DNA from: Escherichia coli
Lineage (GTDB): Bacteria > Pseudomonadota > Gammaproteobacteria > Enterobacterales > Enterobacteriaceae
DNA: 64,000 nucleotides
Assembly: GCF_030013595.1 (NCBI RefSeq)
Contig: NZ_CP122768.1
Direction: 5' to 3' (one strand)
Position 1 is the first letter of the stretch. Every line of letters starts with the position of its first letter. This document shows, piece after piece, positions 42,168 through 44,096 of this stretch. The notes below the pieces were generated by a model that was given only the letters and a program-made list of their open reading frames with translations, ran no database searches and had not been told where the DNA came from. Made by a program: the position numbers and the translations under genes.

Positions 42168-43319
42168 ATGTCACTTGTCACCGATCTACCCGCCATTTTC
42201 GATCAGTTCTCTGAAGCTCGCCAGAAAGGCTTTCTCACCGTCATGGATCTCAAGGAGCGCGGCATTCCGCTGGTTGGCACCTACTGCACCTTTATGCCGC
42301 AAGAGATTCCGATGGCAGCCGGTGCAGTTGTGGTTTCGCTCTGTTCCACCTCTGATGAAACCATTGAAGAAGCCGAGAAAGATCTGCCGCGCAACCTCTG
42401 CCCGCTGATTAAAAGCAGCTACGGCTTCGGCAAAACCGATAAATGCCCCTACTTCTACTTTTCTGATCTGGTGGTCGGTGAAACCACCTGCGACGGCAAA
42501 AAGAAAATGTATGAATACATGGCGGAGTTTAAGCCTGTTCATGTGATGCAGTTACCGAACAGCGTTAAGGACGATGCCTCGCGTGCATTGTGGAAAGCCG
42601 AGATGCTGCGCTTGCAAAAAACGGTAGAAGAACGTTTTGGGCACGAAATTAGCGAAGATGCTCTGCGCGATGCCATTGCGCTGAAAAACCGCGAACGTCG
42701 CGCACTGGCTAATTTTTATCATCTTGGGCAGTTAAATCCTCCGGCGCTTAGCGGCAGCGACATTCTGAAAGTGGTTTACGGCGCAACCTTCCGGTTCGAT
42801 AAAGAGGCGTTGATCAATGAACTGGATGCAATGACCGCCCGCGTTCGTCAGCAGTGGGAAGAAGGCCAGCGACTGGACCCGCGTCCGCGCATTTTAATCA
42901 CCGGCTGCCCGATTGGCGGCGCAGCAGAAAAAGTGGTGCGCGCGATTGAAGAGAATGGCGGCTGGGTTGTCGGTTATGAAAACTGCACCGGGGCGAAAGC
43001 GACCGAGCAATGCGTGGCAGAAACGGGCGATGTCTACGACGCGCTGGCGGATAAATATCTGGCGATTGGCTGCTCCTGTGTTTCGCCGAACGATCAGCGC
43101 CTGCAAATGCTCAGCCAGATGGTTGAAGAATATCAGGTCGATGGCGTAGTTGATGTGATTTTGCAGGCGTGCCATACCTACGCGGTGGAATCGCTGGCGA
43201 TTAAACGTCATGTGCGTCATCAGCACAACATTCCTTATATCGCTATTGAAACAGACTACTCCACCTCAGATATCGGGCAGCTCAGCACCCGTGTCGCGGC
43301 CTTTATTGAGATGCTGTAA
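42168..43319 (+). CDS. yjiM: 2-hydroxyacyl-CoA dehydratase-like protein (HgdB-like)
   Basis: 383 aa from MSLVTDLP; paired with the downstream activator-ATPase-like gene. Confidence 0.8.
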   Translation: MSLVTDLPAIFDQFSEARQKGFLTVMDLKERGIPLVGTYCTFMPQEIPMAAGAVVVSLCSTSDETIEEAEKDLPRNLCPLIKSSYGFGKTDKCPYFYFSDLVVGETTCDGKKKMYEYMAEFKPVHVMQLPNSVKDDASRALWKAEMLRLQKTVEERFGHEISEDALRDAIALKNRERRALANFYHLGQLNPPALSGSDILKVVYGATFRFDKEALINELDAMTARVRQQWEEGQRLDPRPRILITGCPIGGAAEKVVRAIEENGGWVVGYENCTGAKATEQCVAETGDVYDALADKYLAIGCSCVSPNDQRLQMLSQMVEEYQVDGVVDVILQACHTYAVESLAIKRHVRHQHNIPYIAIETDYSTSDIGQLSTRVAAFIEML

Positions 43320-43328
43320 GGAGTGGCA

Positions 43329-44096
43329 GTGGCATATTCGATTGGCATTGATTCCGGCTCAACCGCCACCAAAGGGATCTTACTGGCAGACGGCGTGATT
43401 ACGCGCCGTTTCCTCGTTCCAACACCCTTTCGCCCGGCAACAGCAATTACTGAAGCCTGGGAAACTCTGCGCGAAGGGTTAGAAACAACGCCGTTTCTGA
43501 CGCTCACCGGCTACGGACGGCAACTGGTGGATTTTGCCGATAAACAGGTGACGGAAATCTCCTGTCACGGGCTGGGCGCACGGTTTCTTGCGCCAGCAAC
43601 GCGCGCAGTAATCGACATCGGTGGTCAGGACAGCAAAGTGATTCAGCTTGATGATGACGGTAACCTGTGCGATTTCCTGATGAATGACAAATGCGCGGCG
43701 GGCACCGGGCGTTTCCTGGAGGTGATCTCGCGCACGCTTGGCACCAGCGTCGAGCAACTCGACAGCATTACCGAAAATGTCACGCCGCACGCGATCACGA
43801 GTATGTGTACGGTGTTTGCCGAATCAGAAGTGATCAGCCTGCGCTCAGTGGGCGTCGCGCCAGAAGCGATTCTCGCTGGAGTGATTAACGCGATGGCGCG
43901 GCGGAGTGCCAATTTCATTGCTCGTCTCTCCTGTGAAGCGCCGATTCTGTTTACTGGTGGCGTTAGTCATTGCCAGACGTTTGCCCTGATGCTGGAATCT
44001 CATCTGGGAATGCCGGTAAATACCCATCCTGATGCGCAATTTGCTGGCGCAATTGGCGCAGCGGTAATTGGTCAACGAGTGAGAAAACGCCGATGA
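43329..44096 (+). CDS. yjiL: BadF/BadG/BcrA/BcrD-type ATPase (dehydratase activator-like)
   Basis: ASKHA-fold motifs (IGIDSGSTATKG, DIGGQDSK); GTG start at 43323 or 43329. Confidence 0.8.
   Translation: MAYSIGIDSGSTATKGILLADGVITRRFLVPTPFRPATAITEAWETLREGLETTPFLTLTGYGRQLVDFADKQVTEISCHGLGARFLAPATRAVIDIGGQDSKVIQLDDDGNLCDFLMNDKCAAGTGRFLEVISRTLGTSVEQLDSITENVTPHAITSMCTVFAESEVISLRSVGVAPEAILAGVINAMARRSANFIARLSCEAPILFTGGVSHCQTFALMLESHLGMPVNTHPDAQFAGAIGAAVIGQRVRKRR

Follow-up and report, generated by a model that had tools for sequence, protein, structure and literature searches.

The yjiM-yjiL-ytiA operon

The 64,000-nucleotide stretch of the Escherichia coli chromosome analysed here (contig NZ_CP122768.1; "the window") carries the gene pair yjiM-yjiL at positions 42168–44096, which run exactly from the start codon of yjiM to the stop codon of yjiL. 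Positions 41000–45500 are 99.9% identical to NZ_CM149870. An earlier note on this DNA had described an uncharacterised, dehydratase-like pair in a conserved operon, whose substrate in E. coli is unknown and which lies next to a multidrug exporter and to DUF445 and DUF3343-like genes. The pair, its coordinates, both Pfam families and all three neighbours (mdtM, yjiN and the DUF3343 gene, annotated in K-12 as ytiA, b4715) were found as described. The dehydratase label was not upheld. By every testable criterion of sequence and predicted fold, YjiM-YjiL is a class II member of the family formed by the double-cubane cluster protein (DCCP) and its reductase (DCCP-R), and "double-cubane reductase" should replace "dehydratase-like". 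We hold the enzyme class and the operon structure with high confidence. It is likely that yjiM, yjiL and ytiA constitute an FNR-activated three-gene operon for an ATP-driven low-potential reductase and a small cysteine-bearing carrier, which we read as a system of selenium/sulfur trafficking.

The system is already known as such, since the DCCP class is present in databases and papers, and RefSeq annotates the genes accordingly. Our literature search gave no paper defining their function in E. coli, as the earlier note had anticipated; yet the class of YjiM has been recognised (PMC7317905), the NCBIfam model NF040772 was built by Haft and Gwadz to include YjiM and names it as a member, and an expression module (iModulon) containing yjiLM has been described. 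The additions made here are the recognition of ytiA as a third gene, both conserved and translationally coupled, a survey of gene neighbourhoods with counts, a candidate FNR promoter, and a gene context that converges with the E. coli iModulon. DCCPs are chemically related to nitrogenase, and E. coli, with one DCCP copy in an FNR-activated core operon, is the easiest organism in which to find their function.

A query spanning the locus was matched by 5386 of 5426 complete E. coli genomes, and the order yjiM-yjiL-DUF3343 is maintained in Citrobacter, Cedecea, Superficieibacter, Hafnia, Morganella and Aeromonas, in agreement with the conserved operon proposed earlier. The yjiM stop codon and the GTG start of yjiL are separated by 9 nt, and the ATG of ytiA overlaps the yjiL stop codon (ATGA at 44093–44096). 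In all eight proteobacterial loci that have downstream sequence, ranging from Escherichia to Hafnia, Morganella and Aeromonas, ytiA follows yjiL, mostly with an overlap of 1–11 nt. Because of the ATGA overlap and the conserved gene order, we conclude that ytiA is part of the yjiM-yjiL operon and is translationally coupled to it. YjiM is only 79–81% identical to the Hafnia, Morganella and Aeromonas proteins, and 60–66% identical to proteins from Proteocatella, Enterococcus, Clostridium and Agrilactobacillus. Within Proteobacteria the family occurs only in patches, as could result from horizontal transfer between Firmicutes and enterobacteria.

YtiA scores 48.4 bits (gathering threshold 25) against PF11823, formerly DUF3343 and now named "Se_S_carrier", and a selenium/sulfur carrier function is predicted by this family membership. 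Only four residues (Phe8, Pro34, Cys41 and Gly42) are invariant in 21 YtiA homologues, all of which match PF11823; a highly conserved cysteine across the DUF3343 family was also described by Lin et al. The predicted structure (mean predicted local distance difference test score, pLDDT, 90) is a small β-α-β fold, in which Cys41 lies between predicted strands 2 and 3, within a stretch of slightly lower model confidence (residues 33–42). The best match among PDB sequences has E = 0.012, so that no significant solved relative was identified, and a fold search returned weak PII-like matches only, with template modelling scores (TM-scores) of ∼0.5 and E > 0.01. A TusA-like fold is not claimed, as there is no significant solved relative by sequence or by fold. 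The end of the gene is variable: similarity in most E. coli genomes stops at about position 44303, within the 3′ end of ytiA, and the protein has alternative C-termini, with 88 residues here and 85 in K-12 and 89% identity over the first 80 residues.

Assignment to the double-cubane reductases

YjiM belongs to the HGD-D family (PF06050, E = 6.6e-122) and YjiL to the BcrAD_BadFG family (PF01869, E = 1.9e-75), both as assigned by the earlier note. Against NF040772, the NCBIfam equivalog for "double-cubane-cluster-containing anaerobic reductase", YjiM scores 530.9 bits (cut-off 350) and covers model positions 1–372 of 372. The closest solved structure is the DCCP of Carboxydothermus hydrogenoformans (6ENO/7YYL, E = 7.8e-75), followed by BzdN (E = 2.8e-19), MbdN and HadC. 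The AlphaFold2 model of YjiM (pLDDT 95) can be superposed by Foldseek onto 7YZM_A with a TM-score of 0.94 and a root-mean-square deviation of 1.6 Å, compared to TM-scores of 0.86 for BzdN and 0.87 for HadC (reported span 0.86–0.88); sequence identity to DCCP in the structural alignment is 35–37%. DCCPs are present in 735 of the 15,511 genomes (4.7%) of the calibration set of Haft.

YjiM contains eleven cysteines, seven of which (Cys40, Cys59, Cys78, Cys108, Cys273, Cys302 and Cys335) are invariant or at least 90% conserved in an alignment of 42 diverse sequences, namely YjiM and 41 representatives drawn from a library of 1.84 billion proteins. These seven columns align with cysteines of 6ENO. 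The published seven-cysteine motif comprises six ligands of the [8Fe-9S] cluster and one adjacent cysteine (Cys94 in Carboxydothermus). By alignment, Cys59 corresponds to Cys94 and would lie beside the cluster, as the seventh cysteine of the motif, and the other six would be the cluster ligands. Two points speak against this assignment. The literal published regular expression does not match YjiM, whose spacers are X18, X18, X29, X164, X28 and X32, with X18, X164 and X28 where the published motif has X19, X166–170 and X32–34; moreover, the cluster type of YjiM is deduced from its sequence. We retain the equivalence because alignment to 6ENO and to the 41 homologues places cysteines in the same seven columns.

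The YjiM pair shares the two-gene architecture of the Carboxydothermus DCCP and DCCP-R (CHY_0487/CHY_0488; 6ENO, 7YYL and 7YZM), with the same seven cysteines by alignment and a reductase homologous to YjiL; the E. coli proteins differ in being known from sequence, and the E. coli operon in having the third gene ytiA. A further difference lies at the N-terminus. The alignment begins at residue 26 of YjiM and residue 62 of DCCP, and the fold alignment covers 382 of the 422 target residues, leaving ∼40 unaligned. YjiM is thus ∼36–40 residues shorter and does not have the N-terminal extension with channel-closing helices that defines class I DCCPs. On account of this short N-terminus, Jeoung, Martins and Dobbek (PMC7317905) place YjiM in "class II", probably with wider substrate access. 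Since the ∼36-residue extension that narrows the channel is missing, YjiM should accept a substrate larger than acetylene. In three clostridial loci, two DCCP genes are adjacent, a short YjiM-like copy of 382–383 residues and a long copy of 419–453 residues; the long copy is followed by a DUF3343 gene and then by an activase, so that both size classes share one activase.

YjiL scores 360.4 bits against TIGR00241 (cut-off 125.4). Its closest relatives in the PDB are HgdC (1HUX, E = 2.3e-52), MbdQ (E = 3.2e-50) and the DCCP reductase (7YYL_E, E = 1.5e-47), and HadI was also matched. Cys122 of YjiL is aligned with Cys127 of 1HUX, and Cys160 lies inside the conserved block C-T-V-F-A-E-S-E-V. We take Cys127 and Cys166 of HgdC to be the [4Fe-4S] ligands; both expected ligand positions would then be filled in YjiL. 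Natural fusions of activase and DCCP, found in both domain orders, argue for a functional pairing of YjiM and YjiL. A "yjiL-mdtM cluster" is also mentioned in connection with proline-rich antimicrobial peptides, where a review lists an MdtM/YjiL transporter with an accessory role in uptake; it was set aside as giving no enzymatic function for YjiL.

The (R)-2-hydroxyacyl-CoA (coenzyme A) dehydratases (HgdAB/HgdC, HadBC/HadI and FldBC/FldI) belong to the same HGD-D superfamily and likewise rely on an ATP-dependent [4Fe-4S] activator, HgdC being the one closest to YjiL in sequence. However, each dehydratase combines two paralogous subunits in a heterodimer, with a three-cysteine [4Fe-4S] site per subunit, whereas the E. 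coli system has one subunit with six putative ligand cysteines. Only one HGD-D gene is located between mdtM and yjiJ in the window, and YjiM scores 94.7 against the HadC model (cut-off 700) and 19.1 against HadB (cut-off 750). Neither a CoA-transferase nor a 2-hydroxyacid dehydrogenase, as expected for a dehydratase pathway, is annotated in the window flanks. The class I benzoyl-CoA reductases (BzdNOPQ/MbdNOPQ; 8S02, 9G87) have homologous subunits and ATP-driven low-potential electron transfer, and an [8Fe-9S] cluster has recently been reported for them too (PMC11971306). They consist of four different subunits, compared to two homologous genes in E. coli with no aromatic-degradation genes nearby, and their equivalogs are not matched at cut-off (BzdN 79.8 against 453.8, BcrC 58.9 against 421, BzdQ 158 against 380 and BcrA 134 against 578). 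Based on subunit composition, model scores and context, the pair is neither a 2-hydroxyacyl-CoA dehydratase nor a benzoyl-CoA reductase.

These comparisons also bear on the proposal that YjiM/YjiL acts on a CoA thioester or some other large organic molecule by reduction or dehydration, like the benzoyl-CoA reductases and atypical dehydratases, with YtiA and the selenium genes being incidental. For class II, a CoA ester or a different large organic molecule is the substrate preferred by Dobbek and colleagues (PMC7317905); the absence of the channel-closing N-terminal helices and the closeness of the fold to BzdN and HadC are consistent with such a substrate. Yet the HadC, HadB, BzdN and BcrC models all score far below their cut-offs, and the single HGD-D gene contrasts with the two paralogous subunits of the dehydratases and benzoyl-CoA reductases. 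In addition, no CoA-transferase, CoA-ligase, acyl-CoA dehydrogenase or 2-hydroxyacid dehydrogenase adjoins yjiML in the window, and no CoA-pathway enzyme is among the recurrent neighbours of the 80 loci surveyed below. We therefore regard a CoA-thioester substrate as unlikely.

Gene neighbourhoods and a possible selenium/sulfur role

One genome per species was scanned for relatives of YjiM, which yielded 80 loci with full-length proteins 52–96% identical to YjiM. Nine of these come from Proteobacteria; the other 71 (52–66% identity) are mostly from Clostridia, Lachnospiraceae, Enterococcus and Coriobacteriia. Open reading frames (ORFs) within a radius of 8 kb were called and clustered, hidden Markov models (HMMs) were built, and representatives were checked against NCBIfam and Pfam. 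A first single-linkage clustering was rejected, as it merged unrelated pyridoxal phosphate enzymes and produced false "SclA" matches on enterobacterial YjiR; these enzymes were re-sorted by NCBIfam into the TIGR01977/SclA type, PatB carbon-sulfur (C-S) lyases, NifS and ordinary aminotransferases.

Of the 80 loci, 50 have an activase within 8 kb and 19 have a DUF3343 gene nearby (11 of the 71 non-proteobacterial loci). YjiN-like proteins were found in five, all enterobacterial, and mdtM in one of these five, and we attribute both to local synteny rather than partnership. The comparison of genomic context proposed by the earlier note thus separates the neighbours: mdtM and yjiN are local only, while activase, DUF3343 and selenium/sulfur genes recur. 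The remaining recurrent neighbours (GNAT, an HTH/M78 pair, SfsA-MutY, an AraC-type regulator, an S41 peptidase, tyrosyl-tRNA synthetase, an SDF symporter and a ZIP transporter) are housekeeping genes of unrelated kinds, have no common theme and were discarded as a functional clue.

Nine of the 71 non-proteobacterial loci encode a class V enzyme of the selenocysteine-lyase type (TIGR01977/SclA). The three that were scanned pass TIGR01977 (452, 446 and 497 against 377), one of them, from Enterococcus, also passing SclA (692.8 against 525); our own HMM, with scores above 460 bits, was the basis for the remaining six. YedF (TIGR03527) occurs in eight of the 71 loci (214.7 bits against 110 for the tested representative), SelD in five (395.7 bits against 125), and MtaA-like/corrinoid/RACE (corrinoid methyltransferase) clusters in ten. 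Six loci have a PatB-family C-S lyase gene directly adjacent, which in three cases lies behind genes for a peptide ABC transporter; of three lyases scanned, two pass the PatB model and the third scores 331 against 340. This adjacency suggests that the substrate of the reductase may arise from β-lyase cleavage of a C-S or carbon-selenium bond. The six loci are from Clostridium, Coprococcus, Bariatricus and other Clostridia; the lyase gene is 16–233 nt from that of the YjiM homologue, and the transporter consists of four genes of the peptide type.

In three loci, DCCP and activase are embedded in a selenium-dependent molybdenum hydroxylase locus. Two of these have the order YqeC-YqeB-YedF-SelD-DCCP-activase-MocA-like with gaps of 18–60 nt, one continuing with xanthine dehydrogenase (XDH) subunits. 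The third, from Enterococcus, reads XdhC-DCCP-activase-selenium-dependent XDH (TIGR03311, 1550 bits)-MocA-SclA-SelD-YedF-DUF3343-YqeC. Another locus opens with a LysR regulator of selenium metabolism (NF040786, 367 against 250).

These neighbourhoods resemble the selenium-utilisation neighbourhoods of DUF3343, YedF, YedE, SclA and SelD in the literature (Lin 2015; Haft & Gwadz 2022–23; MGC preprint 2023), and YtiA is a PF11823 member with an invariant cysteine. Lin et al. (2015) proposed DUF3343 as a selenium/sulfur chaperone; in their STRING table for Slackia, DUF3343, YedF and YedE are associated both with a "CoA-substrate-specific enzyme activase" and with "2-hydroxyglutaryl-CoA dehydratase subunits". 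According to Haft, 955 of 970 DCCPs are in genomes that encode SelD. In the type I MGC preprint (2023), DCCP is called "provisionally linked to selenium metabolism", and the corrinoid clusters are argued to demethylate methyl-selenides.

For E. coli, the combined chromatin immunoprecipitation and expression study of FNR by Myers (2013) lists yjiML as directly FNR-activated (category 1, higher anaerobically), yjiM rises 2.8-fold in O157:H7 cultures once oxygen is exhausted, and a recent metal-stress study cites yjiM as FNR-regulated. The anaerobic pathway that the earlier note had suspected from the neighbouring genes is supported by this activation and by induction on oxygen depletion, not by mdtM and yjiN; of the neighbours, the DUF3343 gene is the informative one. 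An independent-component analysis of E. coli transcriptomes defined an uncharacterised anaerobic iModulon consisting of ydjXYZ-ynjABCD, yedEF, yjiLM and ynjE, and its authors suggested a relation to molybdenum and selenium usage. Thus, gene families found beside YjiM homologues in Firmicutes are co-expressed with yjiLM in E. coli. In K-12 (1,833,401–1,848,008), ydjXYZ-ynjABCD and ynjE are only ∼6 kb from selD.

The FNR regulon also includes hcp, nirB and nrfA, and the Carboxydothermus DCCP reduces acetylene in an ATP-dependent manner (PMC7317905). Both facts would suit an anaerobic detoxification reductase acting on hydroxylamine or on azide-, hydrazine- or alkyne-like small molecules. We consider such a function quite improbable: the in vitro substrates of DCCPs are not known to be physiological (Haft), the surveyed neighbourhoods contain no nitrogen-oxide or detoxification genes, and neither the conserved, translationally coupled gene for a cysteine carrier nor the co-variation with yedEF and ynjE would be explained.

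The mechanism that we propose for YjiM-YjiL is carried over by homology from the Carboxydothermus DCCP/DCCP-R pair, for which it has been shown. YjiL would form a homodimer whose two subunits hold one [4Fe-4S] cluster between them, and would receive electrons from ferredoxin or flavodoxin. Upon ATP binding and hydrolysis it would dock on the YjiM dimer and drive an electron uphill into the putative [8Fe-9S] double-cubane cluster, which, once reduced, would in turn reduce the substrate. As a separate and less certain proposal, the substrate would most likely be a selenium or sulfur species delivered by YtiA, probably on Cys41 (for example protein-bound perselenide or persulfide, elemental selenium or organoselenium), such that reduced chalcogen would be supplied or recycled by the system for anaerobic selenium use through SelD. 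In its most specific form, YjiM-YjiL-YtiA would be the missing reductive step of selenium use, in which selenium bound to the YtiA cysteine, as Se(0), as perselenide or from organoselenium compounds, is converted to selenide and passed to SelD. Selenoproteins, selenouridine or the labile selenium cofactor of molybdenum hydroxylases would be the destinations of this selenide. With its very negative potential, the Se(0)/HSe− couple would account for a need for ATP-coupled electron injection.

Our confidence declines as the proposal becomes more specific. A selenium/sulfur-linked role of some kind seems to us evenly balanced between true and false, the production of selenide in particular is a tentative suggestion, and the full route from YtiA-bound selenium to SelD is slightly more tentative still. 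Several observations weigh against a selenium/sulfur role, in addition to the preference of the DCCP structure authors for a CoA ester. The neighbour counts were made without a formal background control, and 41 of the 71 non-proteobacterial loci have no selenium/sulfur or corrinoid neighbour within 8 kb. In E. coli, YtiA is the only physical link, since selD, yedEF and yqeBC are elsewhere on the chromosome. The classical E. coli screens for formate dehydrogenase deficiency are not known to have given any genes other than selA–D, which implies that YjiML is not essential for selenoprotein synthesis from selenite. Finally, Lin et al. found no selenium-specific subfamily of DUF3343, and the carrier may therefore handle sulfur or have another role.

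One such other role would be that of a maturation factor, in which YtiA provides the bridging sulfide (or selenide) of the YjiM cluster and the selenium correlation reflects the cofactor, not the substrate. The double-cubane cluster has one extra μ2-sulfide joining its two [4Fe-4S] units, Haft lists a selenium-bridged cofactor as a formal possibility, and the single invariant cysteine of YtiA (Cys41) would suit the purpose. On the other hand, the cluster of the Carboxydothermus DCCP was assembled in E. coli with no dedicated partner described (PMC7317905), and a DUF3343 gene is near DCCP in only 19 of the 80 loci. DUF3343 also occurs in selenium operons without a DCCP; in Lachnospiraceae it ends the operon selD-selA-selB-LysR-class V lyase-YedE-TusA-DUF3343. 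We judge a maturation role very improbable. If, instead, the link to selenium/sulfur trafficking is true, both the purpose of double-cubane clusters and the delivery of reduced selenium to SelD become testable.

Upstream region and other features of the window

The coordinates of the genes and of the candidate regulatory elements are collected in Table 1.

Table 1. Genes and candidate regulatory elements at the yjiM-yjiL-ytiA locus (window positions).
Feature	Position	Strand	Description
mdtM	39499–40731		multidrug exporter, neighbour of yjiM-yjiL
yjiN	40772–42052		DUF445; upstream neighbour of yjiM
Candidate FNR site gcgagagagATCAA	42081–42094	+	right half ATCAA (42090–42094) conserved; left half poor
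Candidate −10	42117–42123	+	TAATAAT in E. coli, TATAAT in other genera; conserved block ATGGTTATAATG
Inverted repeat CCCGT-N3-ACGGG	42143–42155	+	5′ leader, just before Shine-Dalgarno AAGGA (42158–42162)
yjiM	42168–43319	+	putative class II DCCP, electron-accepting catalytic component; ATG start, 383 aa
yjiL	43329–44096	+	putative ATP-dependent reductase (archerase/activase), HgdC/DCCP-R type; GTG start, 255 aa
ytiA	44093–44359	+	DUF3343/"Se_S_carrier" small protein, 88 aa

An alignment of the regions upstream of yjiM from nine proteobacterial loci has three conserved elements: the hexamer GATCAA (42089–42094), which is conserved among the enterobacteria, the candidate −10, separated from it by 22–23 nt, and a strongly conserved leader with the inverted repeat. 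A transcription start is predicted near position 42130. The half-site and its spacing fit a class II FNR promoter, and on these grounds we infer a candidate FNR site. A consensus scan allowing up to two mismatches gave no FNR site in the gap between yjiN and yjiM, the nearest match being at 41954 inside yjiN. A generic promoter and terminator scan gave counts at or below the means of shuffled sequence and did not report the candidate −10, which was missed because it has no −35; a missing −35 is expected if the promoter is activator-dependent. The half-site and the −10 were brought out by the alignment only.

The yjiM leader at 42130–42167 (CTTTTCATTATCTCCCGTGnnACGGGGAAGGAAAATCATG) is very conserved across enterobacterial genera. 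Its inverted repeat CCCGT-N3-ACGGG, kept in six of these genera, may be an operator or a translational element. Hairpin stability of the leader was no better than that of shuffled sequence (z = −0.54), and no Rfam family matched it. The repeat was also considered as a shared operator of the iModulon and rejected, since it occurs upstream of yjiM only and is absent upstream of yedE, ydjX and ynjE.

Downstream of the operon, a gene for a 656-residue pentapeptide-repeat protein (44669–46639, + strand) is located between ytiA and a yjiK-like gene. RefSeq names the protein either "type III effector" or "pentapeptide repeat-containing protein", and the stretch with this gene is found in ∼12% of complete E. 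coli genomes (633–639 of 5426). On the far side of mdtM, positions 38112–39032 (− strand) encode an intact 306-residue recombination-promoting nuclease of the Rpn family (rpnD-like); in K-12, the corresponding gene, rpnD, carries a pseudogene annotation. Just downstream of yjiJ, which in K-12 is flanked on that side by kptA, the window has a 1746-residue ORF (49194–54434, + strand) at the place occupied by iatD (inverse autotransporter) in the closest annotated genome.

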